From the IMG/VR virus record IMGVR_UViG_3300036783_000080, positions 86,651-150,650 of that record: a stretch of DNA of 64,000 nt. One strand, 5' to 3'. Below are positions 19,915-32,716 of this stretch, in pieces. Source of the stretch: a virus. Its lineage: Duplodnaviria; Caudoviricetes. How positions within the stretch are numbered: the stretch's first letter is position 1; every line of letters starts with the position of its first letter. The position numbers and the translations under genes were made by a program. The notes under the pieces were generated by a model. It saw only the letters and a list, made by a program, of their open reading frames with translations, ran no database searches and was not told where the DNA came from.

Positions 19915-20864
19915 CAATATTTATATATTGTATAAGCATTTAACTTACACATTCTATATGTTTCCATATAGTTTAGACTATATCTTCACCGTAAGGTGCT
20001 GGGCACTCGTGGATGGATTATCGTTTTGCCTAACTCACCATCTAGTCGTTGAACCTTCTCCATACTTTAAAGGCTTTCAGGAGCTTGGATGCTGATTGTC
20101 CAATCATCTTGTTTTTCAAACATTCACGTTTACCGTTTCCAGTTACGTTGTAGTACAAGAAGCTCTAAGGAGTTTCCAGCAATTCACCCAGTTTATTTAA
20201 AAGGCTGCAAATTATATATTGGCTATTATTGTTCCATCTTCTCCTCTTATTATGTGTTCGTTATGATGACAAGGTTTGCAAAGTATCTCAAGGTTGGAAA
20301 GCTCGTTGTTGTCTCGGTTTCTATCCTTGTGATGTACGTCTAAAGTATGCAAATCCCCATCTTTCCCGCAACGATTACATTTATGAGAAAAGTTTTCGAA
20401 AGCGAGCTTTCGATATTTAGAAATATTTTGACAAAGGTCACAACGTTTTTGATTGTTACCTGTTTTTGTAAAATGTTTCCCACAGGTTGGACATTTAATG
20501 AATGGCACTCTATATATTTTGTATGACTGGTCTCTTCTGTTATTCACTTTATTTCGACACTCACTGCAATACTTCTGGTTGTAAGCTGAAGGGTTGAAGT
20601 CTCTTTTACATTCGTTACAAGAGACTACTTTGTCCAATAGTCTCCCCTTTTGACTTCTCCCTTTTTTCTTTCGTTCTTCTCTACACGTATTGCAGTATTT
20701 TTGAGTTCCAATCTTCGCTTTAAATGTCTTTTCACAGTTTTTACAAATTTTGTCGTATTTCGCCACATCAAAAGTTCTAATCATATTTGTTCTCTTCATC
20801 ATTATCACCTCATAGTTAATATGAAAGTAATATAGAGAACAAAAGCCAAAGATTTATTTAGCTT
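19915..20864 (-). mobile_element. group I intron (phage IA-type) in the DNA polymerase gene
   Basis: Core elements AAUUGCUGGAAA, AAUCAGCA, UCAACGACUA, AAGAUAUAGUC; P9 hairpins; U|...G| boundaries restore KAVNFGLIYG. Confidence 0.9.
20212..20808 (-). CDS. intron-encoded HNH homing endonuclease with three zinc-finger repeats
   Basis: 3x CxxC...QK(Y/R)CxxC, then CNRC...DVHHKDRNRDNNELSNLEILCKPCHHNEH. Confidence 0.85.
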   Translation of the reverse strand: MIMMKRTNMIRTFDVAKYDKICKNCEKTFKAKIGTQKYCNTCREERKKKGRSQKGRLLDKVVSCNECKRDFNPSAYNQKYCSECRNKVNNRRDQSYKIYRVPFIKCPTCGKHFTKTGNNQKRCDLCQNISKYRKLAFENFSHKCNRCGKDGDLHTLDVHHKDRNRDNNELSNLEILCKPCHHNEHIIRGEDGTIIANI

Positions 20865-22888
20865 ACAGCCTTTGCTTTTGTACGGTCATCGTCTGTAACT
20901 TCTTCTATCGGTTTCTTCATAGAGATACTAGCAGCATATATGTGTAAATCATGACCATCTCTGTACGCTTGAATTAATCGTTCATCACCAGAGAATATCG
21001 CAGCAATACGAAGTTCCAGCTGAGAGTAATCGGCTTGTAGGATGAGTCCTTCATCTCCATAGCGGCTTACGAACATCTTTTTAATTCCATACTGATATTC
21101 GAACGAGTACGGGTTGTTTGACTTCCTTGGGAAGTTCTGAGCATTCGGTGCTTCTGATGCTAAACGTCCTGTAACCGTACCATGTAACATAAAGGTTGGA
21201 TGTACCAGTCCATCTTCCCCAATCCAAGTACGAGCTGGTTTGATATATGTTCCATAAACTTTATCCAATCTTCGCCACTCTGACAGCAAGCTCGCTATTG
21301 GATGTTTGTCCTTCAAGTACTCTAGTGTTTCTTTACCTGTAGACAAATCTGAAGTCTTTGGCTTGAACTTCTTATCTTTTCTCTGAAGCTCTTTCGCTTT
21401 GTCTGTCAAGAAAGGTGTTTCCAATCCTAACTTATCAAACAATAACTCTCTTAATTGAGCGGTTGAACCAAAGTTGAAATTGAAGTTCTTATATTTGTTG
21501 TACTTAAGTATCTCTTTGTCACGTTCATCTTTTGGTTTCTTCATCTCTTCTTGACGAATTTTGAACAGATTATGTTTCTCTCTTTCTATCTGTACAACCT
21601 CAGGGAACTCTCGCAGCTTCTCTTCGATTTTAGCCATACGAGCAGGGAATGCCTCTTCATACTCTGCAAGTCGCTCAGGATTCAAGCGTATGCCGTTAGA
21701 TTCAATGTTTCGTAACATATAAGAAGCTTCCAACATAATCTCTTTGAATACAAAGTCCCAAGCTTCATTTTCTTCAAGGTGTTTCTTGAACGTCATATAA
21801 AGTCGGAACGTACAGTCAACATCGGCAGCGGCGTATTCTCTTAAGATTTCCCAAGGAATGTTGTCATAGTTATGTTGCATCGCTTCTGGAAGAGTTTTCT
21901 TGAACTCATCAAGGTCGTTATCGTAACCGCCCATATCAGTATGTTCCCAAGCTAAATCTTTAAGCCCGTGTCCACCACGTTCTTCTGAAACTGTAAGATA
22001 ATGACATAACATTGGGTCGAATGCGAAGTTTGCTACATCAATGTTATATTTAGCAAGTAGCCACTTCATATCGAACTTACCATTATGTGCCATTTTCTTA
22101 ATCCGTTTGTTTTCCAGTAGCCGCTTAATTAATCCTTTAACTTTATCAAGTACCATTCCTGGCCAAGTAAACTCTTGATGTTCAAGCGGAATCGTTACAC
22201 CACGATGCGTTCCATCTGTTAGAGAGATACAGACAATTTTCTGATTCTTCAGAAATGGGTTTAAGCTCGTGGTCTCTAAGTCAAAACAGTTCCATTCGGC
22301 TTGTTCAAGTCTCTCAATCTCTTTTTCCACGTCTTCGTACGTTTCCAAATAGTTATAATTGACTGACTTTCTTGTTAAAACATCTCGTCCTTTTTCAGCC
22401 AACTCTTTTAAGTTCTGAAGGTCTTTCGCAAAGTTCTTTGAGTGTTTCGGCTGAGTGAATAAGTTTTCTGGGTGAATGATTGGGAAAATGATATAATCAT
22501 CTGTCTCAACCGCTTTCCCTCTGTACTTTGTAATCCCTGTCATACCATAAATCTTTTTCAAAGATACATTCCCCAAAGGTACGATGATATCAGGCTTGAT
22601 GACTTTTAGTTCTGCTTCAAATATTGGACCACATTCCTCAATTTCTTCTTTTACAGGAGGTCTGTCATCATCCAAAGCATACTTCACATATCCTGTGAAG
22701 TAACATTCCTCTTTGGGGTCAATTCCTAACTGTTTAAGAGCTGCCTTAATGAGCTTCCCAGCTCTACCTGTCATATACTTCCCTTTGGCATATTCCTCTT
22801 CAGTAGGAGCATCAGCAACAAACATTATCCTAGCAGATTTCTTCCCTGTACCAAATAACGGTTCATCTTTTAGTTCATCAATGGACAT
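20865..22888 (-). CDS. family A DNA polymerase, exon 1 (UDG-like domain, 3'-5' exonuclease, polymerase)
   Basis: DLET, HNGKFD, YAAADV, TGRLAS, ADYSQLELR, RTKAKAV. Confidence 0.95.
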
Positions 22889-24291: not shown

Positions 24292-25455
24292 TTACACTCG
24301 CTTCCCTTCAATATAACGGATTTTATCAGCAGAATAATGAACATATAGCTCTTTAAACGTTGAAGAATCTGCATAGAACTTATGAAGGAAGAACAAGCAA
24401 GATAACTTCCACTGACAATCTTTCATTTCTGATAACACTTGAATCATTAAGCCAAACTGTTTTAACTTATGAGCACGATACGCAATCATAGAGAAAACAT
24501 TTGTACGGAAATACTCGTCAGGAATTGCTGTTGCAAAAGCCATAATCTGTTCTTGTACTTCAATTTGCTCGAAAGCAGCATCATTATGAAGTGTTTCAAC
24601 AAATCCTTGATTAAATAGTACATCCAAGAAAGCAGTTGTTTCTTGTAATGTGGATTTAATTCTTGGCTCGTTTTCAAACGTGAAATGTTTTACTTCTGGA
24701 GCTTCAAGTTCATCCCCTGTTAACCCGTATGCCTTTTTGATTTTGTCTGACTCTTTATATCCATAATCCTTTAAATAGATATGTAATGAGTCAGTAACTT
24801 GGTTATATGTTCCCACTTCAATTCCTAACCAAGAAGCAACCATTTCTTGAAGCGTAGCAAACTGACATAAGTTCGCTCCAAATGTTCCGTAATGTAAGTC
24901 ATTACTTCTGTTATAGACTGTTAACTGAAGTTTGTTTTTACGGATTTTAAAACAAAGAGTCATATTACAAGGGAAGTCTTTACCCTCATAACTTGAGTTG
25001 TCAAACATCGGATTCCAAATTTGAGCAACCGCTTGTCGTGTATCCCAGTCTTTAAGTAGTTTCTCATACACATCTACCAGTTGGTCAATAGGATTGATAA
25101 TTTGGCCAGTCAAGTCGTTCTTATTCCAAAAGCGTAGTCGTTCCCCATAAGGAGCGTTAAAGTACACGCCATCATCAGAGAACTCGCCCATATTCTGGTT
25201 GTACTTAAGTAAGAACTCAACGTCAGAACGTCCCGCAGAAATCCAAAGAGCTTCTGCTTGTTGGAAGAATGGGTTGATACGTCTATCCTCCAAGAAAGTA
25301 ACACGGTTCAGAGGGTTTGTGAACTCAACAATTACGGGACGTAATTCTTTGATGTCTTTTCCTCTTGGAGCAACAATGTCTCCTTCGTTTTCTAATGCAA
25401 CGAACGCATCCATATAAAGCTGTGATGAATTGTCATTTGTAAAGATTTTACCCAT
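24292..25455 (-). CDS. dUMP hydroxymethylase (thymidylate synthase fold)
   Basis: YGERL, DTRQA, KDFPCN, NRSNDLHYGTFGANL, SLHIY; Asn at the dUMP-specificity position; C-terminal extension; context of hmU kinase and transferase. Confidence 0.85.
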   Translation of the reverse strand: MGKIFTNDNSSQLYMDAFVALENEGDIVAPRGKDIKELRPVIVEFTNPLNRVTFLEDRRINPFFQQAEALWISAGRSDVEFLLKYNQNMGEFSDDGVYFNAPYGERLRFWNKNDLTGQIINPIDQLVDVYEKLLKDWDTRQAVAQIWNPMFDNSSYEGKDFPCNMTLCFKIRKNKLQLTVYNRSNDLHYGTFGANLCQFATLQEMVASWLGIEVGTYNQVTDSLHIYLKDYGYKESDKIKKAYGLTGDELEAPEVKHFTFENEPRIKSTLQETTAFLDVLFNQGFVETLHNDAAFEQIEVQEQIMAFATAIPDEYFRTNVFSMIAYRAHKLKQFGLMIQVLSEMKDCQWKLSCLFFLHKFYADSSTFKELYVHYSADKIRYIEGKRV

Positions 25456-25980: not shown

Positions 25981-26691
25981 TTACATAAATTCTTCACCAA
26001 ATCCCCCATTCTTACGCTTCTGCTGGATATTCTCAATAATTCTTACAGTTGTGTTAAAACGTTCAGCAATGACCACCTGAGTGAGCTTTCCTTCCATTAG
26101 TAATAAAACAACTTCATAGCGTTCTTTGTAACTTAATGTTTTGTTTCCTTTCGGAACAAATGGAATATATTTCTCATCCATGTCTGGGTCAATATGACTC
26201 CAAGTTCTTCCATTCTTTATACTTCTGATAGTTCCTTCATCATGACCAAGTTCCCTCGCCACATCTGCTGCTGTTTTATCTGGTTGTGAATGGAAAATTC
26301 TTTTTATGTGAAGAGCTTGCTCAACAGTTAATGTGGGAGCGTTTACTGTCTTATGTCTCTTTCTTCTTTTCATATCATCCATATTATCTTGGTGCGTTCC
26401 CAGTTCTAAATGTTCTGGATTGATACAAAGACTGTTATCACACTTATGTCTGACAACCACACCATTTGGTATTGCTTCCCCGTGAGTAATAAACCACACA
26501 TAGTGCGTGACTGTTAGTCCCTTTCCTTTGTTTCCTCTGGCTTGTGGATAATTACTTCTGCAAACTCTGGGATAACCACTCACCGATATCTTATGACTCA
26601 CGCACTCCCAACAATCTTTATTCTTAATATATTCTATCGGTTTACATATTTTCTTAACATCGTTCGGCTCTTGTAATGTATATGTTTTCAT
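25981..26691 (-). CDS. free-standing HNH endonuclease with C-terminal HTH domains
   Basis: CWEC, VRHKCDNSLCINPEHLELGTHQDNMDD; two HTH-like segments. Confidence 0.85.
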   Translation of the reverse strand: MKTYTLQEPNDVKKICKPIEYIKNKDCWECVSHKISVSGYPRVCRSNYPQARGNKGKGLTVTHYVWFITHGEAIPNGVVVRHKCDNSLCINPEHLELGTHQDNMDDMKRRKRHKTVNAPTLTVEQALHIKRIFHSQPDKTAADVARELGHDEGTIRSIKNGRTWSHIDPDMDEKYIPFVPKGNKTLSYKERYEVVLLLMEGKLTQVVIAERFNTTVRIIENIQQKRKNGGFGEEFM

Positions 26692-26694
26692 TAA

Positions 26695-26741
26695 AAATCC
26701 CTCCTGGGTAATATAAGGAGGGATTTCAAAATTATACTCTT
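26695..26741 (-). promoter_or_regulatory. middle-type promoter inside an RBS-sequestering hairpin
   Basis: AAGAGT-N18-CTTATATTA; 11-bp stem AAATCCCTCCT/AGGAGGGATTT. Confidence 0.7.
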
Positions 26742-27823
26742 GGTTTCAAGTTGTCAACATCTGGAGTTCTTAGTTTCATCTTTTTCTTTGGACGTTTTCC
26801 TTTTGCAAAGTCATATCCTCTTTCTGTACAGTAAGAGTTGAAATACTTCTGACTTTCGCAGAACCATCCTTCAAAACAACGTAAATCCAGTTCAGCATCT
26901 TCGTTTTGATATTTGTATTCAAGTCCTAACTTCTCAAACATAGCGTTGGCAACACTTGCTGTAAAGAATACAAGTTCAGTATAAGACATATTACCTTTGT
27001 TCTCAAACACATAGTCAACACCCTTTTTGCAACCTGGCCCGCAATTCGTCCAATAATCCGCTGTCCAGTTAACAAAAGGAATATCAGTCATTTCTTCAAC
27101 CATAGCTAAATCCAAGCACACTTCATAAGAGTTAAACATTCCAACAGCAGGAACTCGTGTCAGATAGTTGACTACTGATTCCATGTTATTCTTTTTATTG
27201 AATACAAAGTCAGCAATCTCATCTAAGTTGTCAATTACATATTGTAACAGACAAATAGCATTCTCTGTTTTGTCGCCGCTCTTTTCTTTATCTGGATTGG
27301 CTGATTTTAAATCGTTTACAAAGTAAGCGTCAGTGAAGATTGTTTTTCCTTGACGTTTACGTTCTCTCAGGTTGGCTTTTGCTCGTTCCCAATCAGATGA
27401 GAATGTTTCTGGGTGAATGTATCCGATTATATCCCATGTTTCAGGTCGTACAAACAAGCGATAGATGAAAGTGTTTAACAGAAGATACTTTCTTGACTCA
27501 TCTGTATCCTTTAAGTTTGGAAGAACGTTATCAATGTAATGTAACGTTACACGGTCAAGCTTTCTGTCAACATTAGTGAAATGATATGTTCCCATGATTG
27601 GGTCTGTTGTCCAAGGCTTTGGCTCCTGCTCCATAACACGTTTGTACCAGATATTTTGACGTTCAACCATATTTCTGAAGTACATTTCAAAGAAAGTTAC
27701 TCCTGTTTCTGGGTCAACACGCAACTTTACATCATCATTAGGTGTATTAATGTATTGTTCTTCCCAGTAAGGTTTATTTTCACGATTTAACGAACGCAAG
27801 AAAGCTCCATCAGTTTGTTTCAT
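26732..27823 (-). CDS. aGPT-Pplase1-type (amino acid/amine:DNA transferase) thymine hypermodification enzyme
   Basis: ERQNIW...PWTTDPIM..YHFTNVDRKLDRVT, GPGCKKG, EGWFCESQKY. Confidence 0.85.
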   Translation of the reverse strand: MKQTDGAFLRSLNRENKPYWEEQYINTPNDDVKLRVDPETGVTFFEMYFRNMVERQNIWYKRVMEQEPKPWTTDPIMGTYHFTNVDRKLDRVTLHYIDNVLPNLKDTDESRKYLLLNTFIYRLFVRPETWDIIGYIHPETFSSDWERAKANLRERKRQGKTIFTDAYFVNDLKSANPDKEKSGDKTENAICLLQYVIDNLDEIADFVFNKKNNMESVVNYLTRVPAVGMFNSYEVCLDLAMVEEMTDIPFVNWTADYWTNCGPGCKKGVDYVFENKGNMSYTELVFFTASVANAMFEKLGLEYKYQNEDAELDLRCFEGWFCESQKYFNSYCTERGYDFAKGKRPKKKMKLRTPDVDNLKPRV

Positions 27824-27835
27824 TTCAATTCCTCC

Positions 27836-28105
27836 TTATAATTTGTTTACATAGTATGTCTTTACAATATGACAAATAGTTACTTCTTCTGAGTACATAC
27901 CGCCAGTCTCAATAGACTCGGCTTTGTAAGTGGTTCCAAGGTCTACAATTTCATATCGAACGTTGTCAATTGTTATTCTTTCCCCAACCATATGTCTCAT
28001 ATCCGTTAGCGATTTAGATGTAAACGACATCACATCTTTATCTTCGCACATGAATATAATAGTATGTTTTACATTCTCAATTGGTTGTATCTTCAATTCT
28101 GTCAC
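27836..28105 (-). CDS. hypothetical protein (89 aa) between kinase and transferase
   Basis: ORF track; tight packing. Confidence 0.65.
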   Translation of the reverse strand: MTELKIQPIENVKHTIIFMCEDKDVMSFTSKSLTDMRHMVGERITIDNVRYEIVDLGTTYKAESIETGGMYSEEVTICHIVKTYYVNKL

Positions 28106-28106
28106 C

Positions 28107-28811
28107 TCATCTCGAAAATTCTTTTACATAGTTTAAGAATTGTTTTAAAGTGTCCTGCTTCTTGATAGAACTATTATCAACGACTATACTGTTTAATCCT
28201 TCATTTGCGAACTTCTCAGCGTTACGTTGTACAGTTCTCCACTTTCCTTCAATCTGTTCAACTTTGATTTTATGGAAAGTATCAGGAGAACGTCCTTTAA
28301 TACGTTCTAAACAAACTTCAAAAGGTGGTAAAAGGTTGTATATGAGAATGTCTCTATGTGGGCTTTGTCTCTCTTCCAGCTCTTTAAATAGATTTAAGTA
28401 TGTTGAGTAAATCGTTGAAGAAATTACACCCTCCATAAGTATGCTGAAAGGAGTCTCCCATAATGATTCAAGCGTTTGTAGTGTCTCCTCATTCCCTTTA
28501 AATCCATCCAAGCCGCCTGTCTTCGTTCTGTAACGTCCCATTGCTACAAATCCGAATGAAGGGAAAACAGTTGCTCTATCTTTTCCATCAATCGTGAATA
28601 TAAATGCTCCTCTGTCTTCTGCTAACATAGATAGTGGAACTGTAGATTTTCCTGAACCATTACATCCTCTAATATTAACAAGCATTAGTCCTTTGCGGTA
28701 CTTTATTCTGCCGCCGCAGTTTTGTTTCAATGTTTCTATGAACTCTGATACTTCAATTCGTTTTAGTTTGATAGAACTTCGTTCCATTTTATCACCTCTA
28801 GTATCAATCAT
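28107..28811 (-). CDS. P-loop kinase, 5-hmdU DNA kinase family
   Basis: NIRGCNGSGKST, MGRY...GGLDG, LMEG, PFEVCLERIKGR; second possible start at 28787. Confidence 0.8.
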   Translation of the reverse strand: MIDTRGDKMERSSIKLKRIEVSEFIETLKQNCGGRIKYRKGLMLVNIRGCNGSGKSTVPLSMLAEDRGAFIFTIDGKDRATVFPSFGFVAMGRYRTKTGGLDGFKGNEETLQTLESLWETPFSILMEGVISSTIYSTYLNLFKELEERQSPHRDILIYNLLPPFEVCLERIKGRSPDTFHKIKVEQIEGKWRTVQRNAEKFANEGLNSIVVDNSSIKKQDTLKQFLNYVKEFSR

Positions 28812-28813
28812 AG

Positions 28814-28870
28814 TTTCACCTCCAACGAGTTAGTACATAATAAAACGTTGGAGGTGAAAAGTTTTCTCCT
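28814..28870 (-). promoter_or_regulatory. middle-type promoter inside a perfect 14-bp inverted repeat
   Basis: AGGAGA-N18-GTTTTATTA; arms 28814-28827 and 28846-28859. Confidence 0.8.
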
Positions 28871-31487
28871 ATTCTTCAGTAGGTTGAAGTCCACTATAAT
28901 GAGCCTTGTCTAACACGTTGAGCTTTGCTTTACTACCTACAAGGAAGCCTTCAATGGTTTGTAAGAATGCTTGTTTGTAGTCTGGTTTAACAACCCACAT
29001 ATCGTCAACTTTTTCATAATACGTCATAACCTTCTCAAATAGCTCTTCATCTTTGAGTTGGTCTTCAAGCTCTGAAATCTCTTCTGGAGTGAATGACGCA
29101 AAGCTGACTTCAATCATTGGAGTCCAATTCTTCAGTTTGTCTACAACTGAAACGACATCCTGTCTTGATACAATCCCAGGAATAATAGGTGAGATTGCTA
29201 GAATTGTATAAACGCCAGCATTGAAGCACTTAATAAAGCTCTCAATGATTTGGTCTGGTGTATGAGCCTTCTTCGTTGGATAGACTGACTTCCATTTGTT
29301 GTTATCCATAGTGTTCAGATGAACTCTGACTTCACTCTGTGGATGTTGAGCTAATGCTTCCACAGCCCAATCGGGGACAACTCTTCTTGTTTCAACAGAA
29401 ATTGGAATGTCATGTTTTACGCAAAACTCAAAGATTGGTTGAGTTGCTTGATGACGTTCCTCACGATAATGGAAAGGTTCAATTGGGAAGTAACACTCAT
29501 CGTAACGTTGTCCAGCATCAAGATTCTGCTTCAGAAGTTCGCCATAATGTTTGTTCACACGTTTACTTCCATACGGTGCTGCAACAAAGATTCCTGAGCT
29601 TCTTTCCGTTTTAATTGGTTGTCGCACTTCCTCTTCCTCCTGTTCAGGTTCTTCCTGCTTCTGTGGTTCTGGTTGTTTCTCTTCTGGCTCTTCAAATTCT
29701 TCCTCTACTCTTTTGGCTTCATCTATTTCAGCCATAAGCTCAGCATACGTTTTTCCCTGCGGAGGTTTCACAGTTATTGCTTCTTTATCTTCTTTTTCAG
29801 GTTTGGGTTTATGAACAATGTTATCTAATATCTCGTTAACATCATCATCTCCATCCTCTTCTTCATCGTCGTCATCATCGCCATTCCCAGCCATCTGCTC
29901 CATTAAACTTGCGATAAAGTTGTCTGGCTCTTCTGACTGTTCTGCTTTCTTCTCTGGCTGTTTCTTCTCTTCTTTGACTTCTTCTTCAGGAGCTTCTTCA
30001 ACCACGTCCTCCTCTTCAACGTCACAAGGCTCTGGTTGAGGCTCTGGCTTTGGTTCTTCCTTAACCTCTCCTTTTGGCATATTTACAGGAGCTGACTTTG
30101 GTGGGAGAACTAAGTCATTGTATTCAGAAATCAATAGGATTTCTTTGTCAAGTTTCCCTAAAATGCTTTCAAACTCAGATTTATTCGCTCTTTGAACTCC
30201 ATTTAATGAAGCTACAAGAACAAGTTGTTGAAGTTCTTCTGGAAGAATATCCAAGTATTCTCTGTAGTCCATGTCAGTCGTTCCAGAACGTAGGATATAA
30301 TTGACAACCCATTCTACACATTGCACACGGAAGATTCCATCAATGTCAAGAATCGCTTGTTTAATAGTATAGTTATCCACATACTCCAATGCACGTTTCG
30401 TAGGTCTAGAAACAATACCTTTCTCAAGCATCGTTCCAAGGACTCTGTGAGCAATTGTCATATCTGCTACTTTCATAGCTTTTACCCATTCTTTGTAGTA
30501 TTGAGATTGTAACATCTCTATCTTCTTGTCACCTTGTTCAAAATCACCATAACGGAAGTCTTGTTCAGCAAGCTCCTTCAGTAACCACTCACGCTCAAAG
30601 TCTTCCTTCGTTTTGAAGACTGGGAACTCTCTTTCTTCGTAATAATGTTTAATCCATTTGTGGTTCTCCCAATATGCATAACGGGCTGCCCATCTCTCTT
30701 TATCCCGTCCAAAGTTCTTCTGCCACAGACGGTTGATTGTGAAAGTCATTAAGCCGCTACCCTTTTTCATGTGTCCGCCAATCCATTTAGAAGGTTCAGC
30801 AAATCGGAATAAATCATCATAGATATGTCCATCCCATACTAGTGAACGAGAATAAACATTGTTTGTGATACCTTTGGATGAGTAATTGAAATGCCAAGTT
30901 AATGGGCAAGGAATCCGTTGATGTTGAGAATCGCTCCAACGTTTCATTTCCATAAGTTCTTTCTGGATGTATCTGCGTCTTGTATATTCTAACAAGTCAC
31001 GCTCATAATGCCAGAATGTAACAATCCCTTTGTCATTCCCTTTATCTTGTAGCAGAAGGTCTTTTACAGCGTGTAACTGACCACGTCCTCCAACACGTTG
31101 CATATTCTGATATGAAGTGTTAGGAAAGATTTCATCACGCTCCATCATAATATCAAGCTGTGTTCTATCGTGTTCAGGTCGCCCAGTTTCAAGTCGGTAG
31201 TCCCAATCAGTCGTTCCGTGCCCTTTTACACGTGACATACGTCTTTGGTCATATCGAACATCTAAGCCACAACCGATACCCAGTTCACCTTCTACAACAT
31301 CAGAGTTAACACGAAGATACCAAAATAATGGGTCTGTATTGTGAGGCATAAACGTAACATAGTTGTCTTGCGTGTTATTTACTTGAAGGAAAACATTTCG
31401 CATATCGTAATTATTGTCAATCATTGCCTTCAAGGTTTTCATATAAGCATCCCAACAGTTTTCTGCTTCAATAACGTTAAAAGCCAC
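28869..31487 (-). CDS. multidomain protein: divergent thymidylate-synthase-fold domain, acidic linker, radical-SAM-like barrel lacking CxxxCxxC
   Basis: GQLHAVKDLL...RIPCPLTWHF...YSRS...IYDDLF; C-terminal EPF...ISVETR...HLNTMD...AGVYTILAISPIIPGI. Confidence 0.6.
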   Translation of the reverse strand: MAFNVIEAENCWDAYMKTLKAMIDNNYDMRNVFLQVNNTQDNYVTFMPHNTDPLFWYLRVNSDVVEGELGIGCGLDVRYDQRRMSRVKGHGTTDWDYRLETGRPEHDRTQLDIMMERDEIFPNTSYQNMQRVGGRGQLHAVKDLLLQDKGNDKGIVTFWHYERDLLEYTRRRYIQKELMEMKRWSDSQHQRIPCPLTWHFNYSSKGITNNVYSRSLVWDGHIYDDLFRFAEPSKWIGGHMKKGSGLMTFTINRLWQKNFGRDKERWAARYAYWENHKWIKHYYEEREFPVFKTKEDFEREWLLKELAEQDFRYGDFEQGDKKIEMLQSQYYKEWVKAMKVADMTIAHRVLGTMLEKGIVSRPTKRALEYVDNYTIKQAILDIDGIFRVQCVEWVVNYILRSGTTDMDYREYLDILPEELQQLVLVASLNGVQRANKSEFESILGKLDKEILLISEYNDLVLPPKSAPVNMPKGEVKEEPKPEPQPEPCDVEEEDVVEEAPEEEVKEEKKQPEKKAEQSEEPDNFIASLMEQMAGNGDDDDDEEEDGDDDVNEILDNIVHKPKPEKEDKEAITVKPPQGKTYAELMAEIDEAKRVEEEFEEPEEKQPEPQKQEEPEQEEEEVRQPIKTERSSGIFVAAPYGSKRVNKHYGELLKQNLDAGQRYDECYFPIEPFHYREERHQATQPIFEFCVKHDIPISVETRRVVPDWAVEALAQHPQSEVRVHLNTMDNNKWKSVYPTKKAHTPDQIIESFIKCFNAGVYTILAISPIIPGIVSRQDVVSVVDKLKNWTPMIEVSFASFTPEEISELEDQLKDEELFEKVMTYYEKVDDMWVVKPDYKQAFLQTIEGFLVGSKAKLNVLDKAHYSGLQPTEE

Positions 31488-31505: not shown

Positions 31506-31973
31506 TTATTGATATGTTTTCTTTAAAGCCATAATAAGTCGCATTTTGTGAATGGCTGGACTTTCATAATGCTTACAAGTTCCGCCACGAGCTTCCAATA
31601 GGTCTTTAAGCTCTTCAACACTCATACCTTTAGTGTTTGGCATTCCTTCAGGGATTTCCTGCTGTTTCTTCTCTTTTTTCGGCTTCTCTTGTTTCTCTTC
31701 AACAGGAGCGGCTTCCACTTCTTTCTCTTCTGGTTCTTGCGGCTGAGTAGGGAATGGAACTTTTGGTTTGTTCGCTTCCGCATTCTTCAATGCCTGTTCC
31801 GTTTCAGGGTTGAGTTTCTTCATATCGTTGAACACGCTGTTCGATTTTGTCTTGGCTGCGCATTCCTGTTGTAAGTCGCACATCTTACATTCTTTCACCG
31901 TTGGTTCAAAAGCCTTTCCAAAACAAGGTGAACTTTCCATCTGGTTTAATAAATCTGGGTCTGTAAATGCCAT
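31506..31973 (-). CDS. Cys-rich regulatory protein (possibly SPO1 gp27-like)
   Basis: PCFG...ECKMC...EC plus C-terminal helix-extended-helix; directly downstream of sigma. Confidence 0.55.
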   Translation of the reverse strand: MAFTDPDLLNQMESSPCFGKAFEPTVKECKMCDLQQECAAKTKSNSVFNDMKKLNPETEQALKNAEANKPKVPFPTQPQEPEEKEVEAAPVEEKQEKPKKEKKQQEIPEGMPNTKGMSVEELKDLLEARGGTCKHYESPAIHKMRLIMALKKTYQ

Positions 31974-32716
31974 TACGCAATAACCTCTCTTTCCTTGTTT
32001 ATAACAAGTTCTGTAATAAACTTTATCTCTTTAATTGCATTGTCGAATTGTTTAGATGTAATACCAAGAGAGTCACGAATATGTTTGTATTTAACTTCAG
32101 CTTTACGTGGCAAGTTTACCTTTTTGCCTTGGTCACGTAAACATATTTTTCTTGCTCTATCTGCCCAAGAGTGCCACAATGTTTTAGGTGATGGATTAAT
32201 AATCTCACATAAAACAGCGATAGCTATGTCTGAATCAAGATTGTCTCGAATTTCTGCTGTCATTCGGTCATAACCTGATTCCACTTCATATGTAGGTGCT
32301 TCCCCAGTTGTTAAAAGAGCGGTTTCAAGGTCGTTTTCTCTTCTTGGCTTCGCCGCATCTTTAATCGCACGATACAGCGAAGTAGTAAATAACATTTTGA
32401 ATTCTTCAATAGGAAGATGGTTATACTTGTCGTAAATGTCATACAGTTTAATAATGCCAATTTGATACAAGTCTTCAACACTCAGAGATTGGTCAATGTA
32501 ATTGGCTCTATCCAGATAGACTTCTTTCGCTGCGTGTTTTACCAAATTAACGAACTTCGCATAAACAAAATCCCACTCCAACTTTGGTCTGTCCCCATGT
32601 TTGTTTTTCATAATGATGGGGATTCTCAGAATTTTCCCACTTTCATCCACTGTTGGTTTCTTTTTATCTCTGTTAATGATGATTGGGATTCTCATAATAG
32701 TTCCGCTCTTGTGCAT
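31973..32716 (-). CDS. phage sigma factor (putative middle sigma, SPO1 gp28-like)
   Basis: SVEDLYQIGIIKLY region 2; C-terminal HIRDSLGITSKQF HTH; in the early operon. Confidence 0.75.
   Translation of the reverse strand: MHKSGTIMRIPIIINRDKKKPTVDESGKILRIPIIMKNKHGDRPKLEWDFVYAKFVNLVKHAAKEVYLDRANYIDQSLSVEDLYQIGIIKLYDIYDKYNHLPIEEFKMLFTTSLYRAIKDAAKPRRENDLETALLTTGEAPTYEVESGYDRMTAEIRDNLDSDIAIAVLCEIINPSPKTLWHSWADRARKICLRDQGKKVNLPRKAEVKYKHIRDSLGITSKQFDNAIKEIKFITELVINKEREVIA

Follow-up and report, generated by a model that had tools for sequence, protein, structure and literature searches.

Which enzyme attaches glutamate to thymine in the DNA of SP10-type phages, and which one turns 5-hydroxymethyluracil (hmU) into thymine (T)? 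Glutamyl-thymine was recognised in SP10 decades ago; neither enzyme was ever assigned in the literature searched. The question is raised anew by a gene for a protein of 872 amino acids (aa) in a 64,000-nucleotide stretch of DNA (the window) from a Caudoviricetes virus, covering positions 86,651 to 150,650 of the IMG/VR record IMGVR_UViG_3300036783_000080, which is a complete phage record of 150,650 bp. We find that the protein joins a divergent thymidylate synthase (TS) fold domain to a radical S-adenosylmethionine (SAM) domain without its iron-sulfur loop, and that its gene is the best candidate for the enzyme that converts phosphorylated hmU into glutamyl-thymine, possibly also into T, in phage DNA.

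SP10 DNA contains N-alpha-glutamylthymidine (N-alpha-gluT), formed on the polymer (PMC8989533, PMC5889632), and T in SP10 is also reported to be derived from hmU on the polymer, with no enzyme assigned (PMC8989533, introduction). The only SP10 enzyme assigned to the pathway is the kinase gp186, while gp185 is listed merely as 'Radical SAM' (PMC5889632 Table 3; PMC8989533 Table 1); Lee et al. 2018 (PMC5889632 Table 3) give this as a prediction and as unique to hypermodifying phages. In other phages the amino acid is installed by an amino acid:DNA transferase (ADDT), which works through addition of a Cys to C6 and an exocyclic methylene (PMC8989533); when borohydride is added to M6 gp51, T is obtained from the exocyclic-methylene intermediate (PMC8989533). 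The product of the transferase, N-alpha-glycinylthymidine in DNA, is the substrate of the radical-SAM isomerase M6 gp53 (Lee et al., PMC8989533). In the literature searched there was no mention of a TS-like domain in gp185 or of a TS-fold partner of the kinase. The type of pathway is already known, the enzyme family and its proposed activity on DNA are not.

The 872-aa protein is the counterpart of SP10 gp185

The protein is encoded by a single open reading frame (ORF) with a GTG start codon, preceded by the ribosome-binding site AGGAGTG. The gene is 93.5% identical in nucleotide sequence to that of Bacillus phage Nachito (Herelleviridae, Spounavirinae), and a tblastn search found relatives of the ORF among isolated phages only in SP-10, Nachito, SBSphiC, vB_BsuM-Goe26 and YungSlug. 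The N-terminal domain shares 74% aa identity with SP-10 (109651-110991), where the gene order is conserved. Both the full-length similarity and the synteny with the kinase and the deoxyuridine monophosphate (dUMP) hydroxymethylase place the protein in the orthologous group of SP10 gp185 (BAK52997.1, elsewhere annotated as 'hypothetical protein'). Like the 872-aa protein, gp185 consists of two modules and an acidic linker; its gene lies directly upstream of that of gp186, the kinase, and the dUMP hydroxymethylase gp188 is encoded nearby. The two loci differ in that the kinase and hel proteins are fused in SP10 (gp186), whereas in the window an 89-aa ORF separates the two genes. Neither the TS-fold domain of gp185 nor its missing cluster is described in the literature searched.

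The 12 full-length fused homologues show 45-63% overall identity with a highly conserved N-terminal domain, and the mean column identity of the fused proteins is 58%. The acidic linker between the modules, which an earlier note on this DNA had put at about 160 aa, is indeed present: residues 451-620 hold 62 Asp and Glu and 20 Pro in 170 residues. A long linker of this kind occurs only in the 872-aa protein (P0001) and in P0005, with a shorter stretch in P0004, and it is absent in nine homologues of 716-724 aa. A complex prediction for the N- and C-terminal modules gave a score of 0.00, which carries no weight either way on binding.

The N-terminal domain has a highly divergent thymidylate synthase fold

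From the letters alone, the earlier note had described the N-terminal part as a second TS-fold domain beside the dUMP hydroxymethylase of the same window. Residues 1-450 matched nothing in searches of Pfam, NCBIfam, PHROGs and PDB sequences, the 872-aa protein staying below the cut-off of PF00303, and BLASTP against the hydroxymethylase of the window was marginal (E 0.02). We therefore rest the TS homology on structure prediction and on profiles that include remote members. The AlphaFold model, built on the 12-homologue alignment, had a mean predicted local distance difference test (pLDDT) score of 69.8 and a predicted template modelling (pTM) score of 0.72, with residues 44-135 and 159-191 poorly modelled. 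Foldseek matched it to the cytidine monophosphate (CMP) hydroxymethylase MilA (E 1.7e-7), and VIA-align gave Z 20.4 for the same enzyme (275-279 residues aligned at 4.2 A, model residues 7-412), Z 14.4 for the phage deoxycytidine monophosphate (dCMP) hydroxylase AfhB and Z about 12 for dozens of classical TS chains. The dUMP hydroxymethylase of the window itself likewise has MilA as its top match in the PDB, so that the match reflects the shared helical extension and not the choice of base.

Profile comparison led to the same fold. When the narrow-family alignment was compared with the dUMP hydroxymethylase, hhalign gave only 16%; with the wide-family alignment, the probability against 21 phage dUMP hydroxymethylases was 98.6% (E 1.2e-15, 301 columns). 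The TS homology emerged only once remote members had entered the profile. In a profile search of 1.84 billion representatives, the TS-like family comprised only 18 clusters and included proteins of 400-855 aa with 19-35% identity; four remote members touch PF00303, and one of them, P0151, is above the cut-off (27.5 against 24.3 bits). A locus search based on the narrow alignment brought just 4 further viral contigs.

The motifs on which the earlier note had relied were recovered in the hhalign alignment with the dUMP hydroxymethylases: GQLH136-139 lies on DQLV, IPC194 on FPC163, YSRS212-215 on YNRS, and QSQYYKEW on PDEYFRTN in the common helical extension. Its reading of the Asn specificity position as Asp also held (Table 1). 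The E. coli numbers in Table 1 follow the ThyA sequence and the aligned ranges of the PDB match.

Table 1. Residues of the N-terminal domain and their counterparts in the window's dUMP hydroxymethylase and in E. coli TS
872-aa protein	dUMP hydroxymethylase	E. coli TS	Basis
C194	C163 (catalytic)	C146	hhalign
R214-S215	R183-S184	R166-S167	hhalign
D225	N195	N177	hhalign
V217	D186	D169 (folate Asp)	hhalign
V60	E68	E58	hhalign
D152-K153		R126-R127	hhalign
10-residue deletion (SP10-type clade)		Arg21 loop	hhalign

Among 17 family members, the most distant at about 20% identity, D63, G74, C194 and R214 are invariant, and R191, P193, D225, W159, D164 and L165 are conserved in at least 90%; D224 and H221 are invariant within the SP10-type clade. 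The surroundings of the retained residues are clearly altered. At the folate-Asp position stands V217, with D219 two residues further on, and the positions of TS Phe176 and Leu172 are Asp and Gly in the SP10-type clade. Of the four-Arg clamp for the 5'-monophosphate (Arg21, Arg126', Arg127', Arg166), only the equivalent of Arg166 is retained. The remote members are more TS-like: they retain a Glu where TS has E58, an RxG loop resembling that of Arg21, and RALD or RSLD. These results show that the N-terminal module is a highly divergent TS/pyrimidine hydroxymethylase fold in which Pro-Cys and Arg-Ser have been kept and the cofactor/base wall has been rebuilt, with His221, Asp224-Asp225 and Asp in place of Asn177.

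With the dUMP hydroxymethylases, MilA and classical TS, the protein shares the fold, the Pro-Cys nucleophile, the Arg-Ser pair and the GQL helix, and its C-terminal helical extension is of the hydroxymethylase type. Unlike the PF00303 enzymes, it has lost the Arg21 loop and has Asp for Asn177, Val for the folate Asp and Asp-Lys for Arg126/127, while the motifs LRVNSD, RDL and HQR (the last before Pro-Cys) are new and invariant. It is linked to a DNA kinase, whereas the PF00303 enzymes are linked to enzymes of the nucleotide pool; its predicted substrate is a base in DNA, and one-carbon transfer would not be needed.

The N-terminal extensions of three family members (P0138, P0145 and P0146) were also considered as radical-SAM-like domains and were rejected on comparison. 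In P0138 (L005 8001-10568) this N-terminal domain is about 280 aa long and gave a weak P-loop match, GAGCSGKS (AAA_18, E 0.003); it had no detectable similarity to the kinase of the window.

The C-terminal domain is related to M6 gp53 and lacks the cluster loop

Residues 618-872 were modelled with a pLDDT of 85.7, and the model matched the radical-SAM proteins NifB (Z 15.8), SuiB (Z 15.7) and spore photoproduct lyase (Z 14.3, 221 residues aligned), in agreement with the cluster-less, SplB-like barrel of the earlier note. In the Pfam search the Radical_SAM family (PF04055) scored 18.4 bits, below the gathering cut-off of 29.5. Against M6 gp53, hhalign gave 98.1% (E 7e-14) over 200 columns, and the motifs PIIPGI and EPF are common to both proteins. 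Where M6 gp53 has PYGGYCTVGCAFCY...VNYG, the 872-aa protein has PYGSKRVNKHYG; taken on to PYGGYCTVGCAFCY...VNYGE, the comparison is with PYGSKRVNKHYGE. A deletion of about 25 residues thus takes out the cluster loop, which in M6 gp53 reads CTVGCAFC, and the site of the loss is marked by PYGSKRVNKHYGEL. No CxxxCxxC motif was found in any of the 12 fused homologues or in the split form P0154. M6 gp53 has the motif, as does P0153, a neighbour of the TS-like gene in lineage L030, which bears PYDGYCPMDCSFC.

Profile and motifs together show the C-terminal module to be a homologue of M6 gp53 whose [4Fe-4S] loop has been deleted; it differs from gp53 in lacking the CTVGCAFC segment and in being fused to a TS-like module. 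Judged by its sequence, such a module cannot hold the radical-SAM cluster in the canonical manner and cannot carry out radical chemistry, and because the cluster loop is lost, isomerase activity in the canonical sense is excluded. A module without isomerase activity fits the N-linked product of SP10. Since conservation is retained, and extends to the EPF and PIIPGI motifs of gp53, a binding role is suggested; the ligand of the module is probably DNA, the modified base or the amino acid.

The TS-like gene accompanies the 5-hmdU DNA kinase and occurs in place of ADDT

The position of the gene immediately upstream of the hmU kinase, which the earlier note had pointed out, recurs across the family. 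The TS-like gene adjoins or lies near the gene of the 5-hydroxymethyldeoxyuridine (5-hmdU) DNA kinase in at least 12 of the 15 lineages examined; three of the 15 contexts were left out as unjudgeable, two being without DNA and one on too short a contig. A PF18748 or phrog_800 kinase is the next gene downstream in the window, SP10, Nachito, YungSlug, L006, L007/L008, L009, L010 and L031, and one gene lies between the two in L005, L032 and the P0141 contig. In many lineages there is only the TS-like gene and the kinase. The link spans lineages that are only 20-35% identical. We also noticed genes of the predicted metal-binding family DUF2284 beside the kinase in L005 (11989-12753) and, faintly, in L010 (8952-10064).

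ADDT (aGPT-Pplase clade 2, PF18724) is represented by M6 gp51, ViI gp247, PhiW-14 gp109 and PaMx11 gp46. Searches for PF18724 found no member in the complete genome of the window or in SP10, Nachito and YungSlug, whereas it is present in M6 (gp51), ViI and PhiW-14. In these last three phages no TS-like paralogue was found, the family profile weakly matching only their own thyA or dUMP hydroxymethylase. The distribution of the two families is mutually exclusive: the TS-like family occurs in place of ADDT, and only where no PF18724 member was found. Both fill the same slot in the pathway, adjoining the 5-hmdU DNA kinase, with a radical-SAM gene of the gp53 type downstream of them: the order in M6 is ADDT, pyridoxal phosphate (PLP) enzyme, radical SAM, kinase and hel, and in the window it is the fusion of the TS-like domain with the dead radical SAM, kinase and hel. 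Their folds are unrelated, however, the 872-aa protein having the TS alpha/beta fold and ADDT a predicted helix-hairpin-helix fold resembling glycosylases, and there is no sequence match between them. The 872-aa protein is not a member of PF18724 and the likeness is one of functional analogy only, in that the conserved Cys of the TS-like family could perform the C6 addition and exocyclic-methylene chemistry of ADDT.

Other lineages place the radical-SAM partner in the same context. In L030 a stand-alone gp53-like radical-SAM gene (Pfam 34.6 bits) comes after the TS-like gene; its CPMDCSFC motif is intact, and its product matches the C-terminal module of the window at 98% in hhalign. In L032 the TS-like and the cluster-less modules are encoded by separate, overlapping genes, followed by the kinase. 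Together with the fused proteins, these contexts form a series from a TS-like protein with an intact isomerase, through one with a dead isomerase, to the fusion of both.

Proposed function and competing explanations

Three points go beyond the earlier note: the gene is that of SP10 gp185, the SP10-type phages are without ADDT, and the barrel is a degenerate copy of M6 gp53. From these it follows that the most economical role for the protein is that of the missing glutamate:DNA transferase. We therefore favour, at a probability of roughly 0.5, that the TS-like protein is a Cys-dependent, non-homologous analogue of ADDT which would install glutamate on phosphorylated hmU in DNA. What speaks for it is the gene position, which is that of ADDT in M6, the phyletic replacement of ADDT, the thiol nucleophile, the methylene chemistry and the isomerase partner. 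In the proposed mechanism, the kinase would phosphorylate 5-hmdU in newly replicated DNA, and Cys194 would attack C6 of the flipped-out 5-phosphomethyl-uracil. The phosphate would then leave, possibly helped by the family-specific Arg191 beside the Cys as a putative ligand of the leaving group, and an exocyclic C5-methylene intermediate would be formed, as in TS. Addition of the alpha-amine of L-glutamate to the methylene would give N-alpha-glutamylthymidine. A TS-like mechanism for SP10 was reportedly proposed by Witmer in 1981, and the enzyme would realise it.

Several points weigh against this reading. To our knowledge, all characterised TS-fold enzymes use mononucleotides, and we know of none that acts on polymeric DNA. 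The Asp at the Asn177 position is a signature of the dCMP type, and several remote members have the folate-position Asp (RALD, RSLD), which fits a folate-dependent reduction better. The surroundings of the active site fall in the poorly modelled segments, and the absence of ADDT from the metagenomic contigs covers only the stretches within about 8 kb. In addition, the HMUDK_hel protein encoded nearby has an invariant Cys-Glu pair in its clade 1 and could itself be the glutamyl transferase. For either reaction this protein has to be taken seriously as an alternative, which is the main reason why our confidence is not higher.

The earlier note had also considered that a TS paralogue acting on DNA might reduce activated hmU to T, and this explanation is still a live rival. 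A 'half thymidylate synthase' would form the Cys-C6 adduct and the methylene and then transfer a hydride, for example from tetrahydrofolate, to give the canonical T that accounts for the larger part of the thymine in SP10, or would carry out both reactions. It would correspond to the second half-reaction of TS, for which the fold and the nucleophile are retained; it would also supply the enzyme missing from the reported formation of T on the polymer (PMC8989533), remote members have Asp at the folate-Asp position, and borohydride turns the same intermediate into T with M6 gp51 (PMC8989533). We do not favour it, because PhiW-14 and ViI are reported to turn hmU into T as well and have no TS-like paralogue. 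In the SP10-type clade Val217 takes the place of the folate Asp, with Asp and Gly at the positions of Phe176 and Leu172, and no dihydrofolate reductase gene that would support folate oxidation was found in these phages when searched for. Moreover, the gp53-like radical-SAM neighbours, which need an aminoacyl-thymine substrate, would be hard to explain, and a kinase with a reductase alone would merely regenerate T. We regard this explanation as possible but doubtful. Reduction to T could coexist with glutamate transfer. We tentatively consider a version in which the TS-fold module would split one Cys-C6/methylene intermediate between glutamate addition and hydride reduction to T, with the barrel binding the amino acid or the flipped base; this would be the single enzyme of Witmer.

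It is unlikely that both modules are degenerate scaffolds, that is, a non-catalytic or regulatory partner that binds DNA or the modified base and positions the kinase or sets its sequence specificity. The radical-SAM module is clearly dead, and the TS module of the SP10 type is without equivalents of the Arg21 loop, Arg126/127, Glu58 (Val60) and Asn177, so the idea has some basis, and the scaffold of the earlier note, whose barrel was to bind or flip bases, may describe the cluster-less domain. For the TS domain a pure scaffold does not agree with the Pro-Cys and Arg that stay invariant in a family otherwise only 20-35% identical; the remote members also retain the Glu58-like Glu and the Arg21-like loop, and the column identity of the fused proteins is high. 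An enzyme of the nucleotide pool, which would take a mononucleotide of cytosine or of another pyrimidine and give a second modified base, appears very improbable, even though the Asp at the Asn177 position is like that of dCMP hydroxymethylase, the top structural match MilA acts on CMP, and mononucleotides are the substrates of the known TS-fold enzymes. The MilA match is shared with the dUMP hydroxymethylase of the window, the mononucleotide phosphate clamp is lost in the SP10-type clade, and we know of no report of a modified cytosine in SP10 DNA. The cytosine-nucleotide modifier of the earlier note is thus poorly supported, since a conserved adjacency links the family with the hmU DNA kinase in lineages that are only 20-35% identical.

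Features of the locus and neighbouring genes

The coordinates of the gene, its parts and its neighbours are given in Table 2. The PF18748 kinase is the sole copy in the genome, and the dUMP hydroxymethylase is about 50% identical to SPO1 gp29.

Table 2. Features of the 872-aa gene and its surroundings in the window
Feature	Position	Strand	Basis
Whole gene, SP10 gp185 (BS_SP10_185) orthologue	28869..31487	-	ORF and translation, identity, synteny
TS/hydroxymethylase-fold domain with helical extension, residues 1-445	30153..31487	-	Foldseek, VIA-align, hhalign
Acidic Pro-rich linker, residues about 446-620, variable, probably disordered	29628..30152	-	composition
Radical-SAM-fold domain without cluster loop, residues 621-872, homologous to the M6 gp53 isomerase but degenerate	28869..29627	-	model, hhalign
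Cys194 codon, predicted nucleophile, HQRIPC motif	30906..30908	-	invariant in 17 family members; aligned to catalytic Cys163
Arg214-Ser215, equivalent to TS Arg166-Ser167 (nucleotide phosphate contact)	30843..30848	-	aligned to R183-S184
Asp224-Asp225, D225 at the base-specificity position of TS Asn177	30813..30818	-	hhalign against N195
PYGSKRVNKHYGEL, site of the lost CxxxCxxC iron-sulfur loop	29535..29576	-	comparison with M6 gp53 and the L030 neighbour
Sigma factor	31973-32716	-	neighbourhood annotation
155-aa Cys-rich protein, SAP-like C-terminus	31506..31973	-	phrog_13400
5-hmdU DNA kinase (P-loop), next gene downstream	28107..28811	-	PF18748, E 1.7e-20
89-aa ORF between kinase and hel	27836-28105	-	ORF without family match
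HMUDK_hel/aGPT-Pplase clade 1 protein	26732..27823	-	PF18723, E 1.3e-50
HNH endonuclease	25981-26691	-	neighbourhood annotation
dUMP hydroxymethylase (classical TS family), source of 5-hmdUMP	24292..25455	-	PF00303 E 5e-20; phrog_5131 E 3e-117
Uracil-DNA glycosylase (UDG) fused to family-A DNA polymerase	20858-22888	-	neighbourhood annotation

The 155-aa protein carries the N-terminal Cys-rich motif CFG..C..C.....C, and in SP10, YungSlug, L032 and the remote L005 lineage the gene immediately upstream of the TS-like one encodes a protein 33-46% identical to it. The 155-aa protein may serve the modification system as an additional partner that binds DNA. SP10 gp186 bears both the kinase and the PF18723 hel domain in a single fused gene. 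The 89-aa ORF was considered as a fragment of SP10 gp186 and was rejected, there being no similarity to gp186. The arrangement of kinase, 89-aa ORF and hel is the same in Nachito, and in the modification cluster of YungSlug a Tad2-like (anti-Thoeris) gene has the hmU DNA kinase on one side and hel on the other (L023 10512-11042).

A six-sequence alignment of diverse members of HMUDK_hel clade 1 contains an invariant Cys322-Glu323 (LCE..KY), reminiscent of the essential Cys and Glu in the clade 2 transferases, and the HMUDK_hel protein could catalyse either the conversion of hmU into T or the transfer of glutamate. For M6 gp51 and gp55, PMC5889632 Table 3 and PMC8989533 Table 1 give the clade 1 and clade 2 labels the opposite way round. 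Pfam assigns M6 gp51 to PF18724 (ADDT), and M6 gp55 and the C-terminal part of SP10 gp186 (gp186C) to PF18723 (HMUDK_hel).

A homing-type HNH endonuclease with helix-turn-helix (HTH) domains sits within the modification cluster, between hel and the dUMP hydroxymethylase. The DNA polymerase gene is a fusion of UDG, exonuclease and PolA that ends inside the polymerase domain, with an HNH-bearing interruption downstream.

Implications for SP10-type phages and the TS superfamily

The SP10-type phages are without the transferase family that serves M6, ViI, PaMx11 and PhiW-14, and the gene provides a concrete and cheaply testable candidate enzyme for them. It also defines a kinase-linked clade of the thymidylate synthase fold that was previously undescribed, and makes it plausible that two unrelated folds have converged on Cys-C6 and exocyclic-methylene chemistry on DNA. 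If the favoured glutamate:DNA transferase is correct, the substrates of the TS superfamily would extend from mononucleotides to DNA. It would also offer a new enzyme for site-directed functionalisation of DNA and a marker for phages whose thymine modifications, not yet known, block restriction enzymes and sequencing. If the protein both adds glutamate and reduces the intermediate to T, it would be the first enzyme of the TS superfamily to work on bases within polymeric DNA, and the wider kinase-linked family would mark phages with undescribed thymine modifications.

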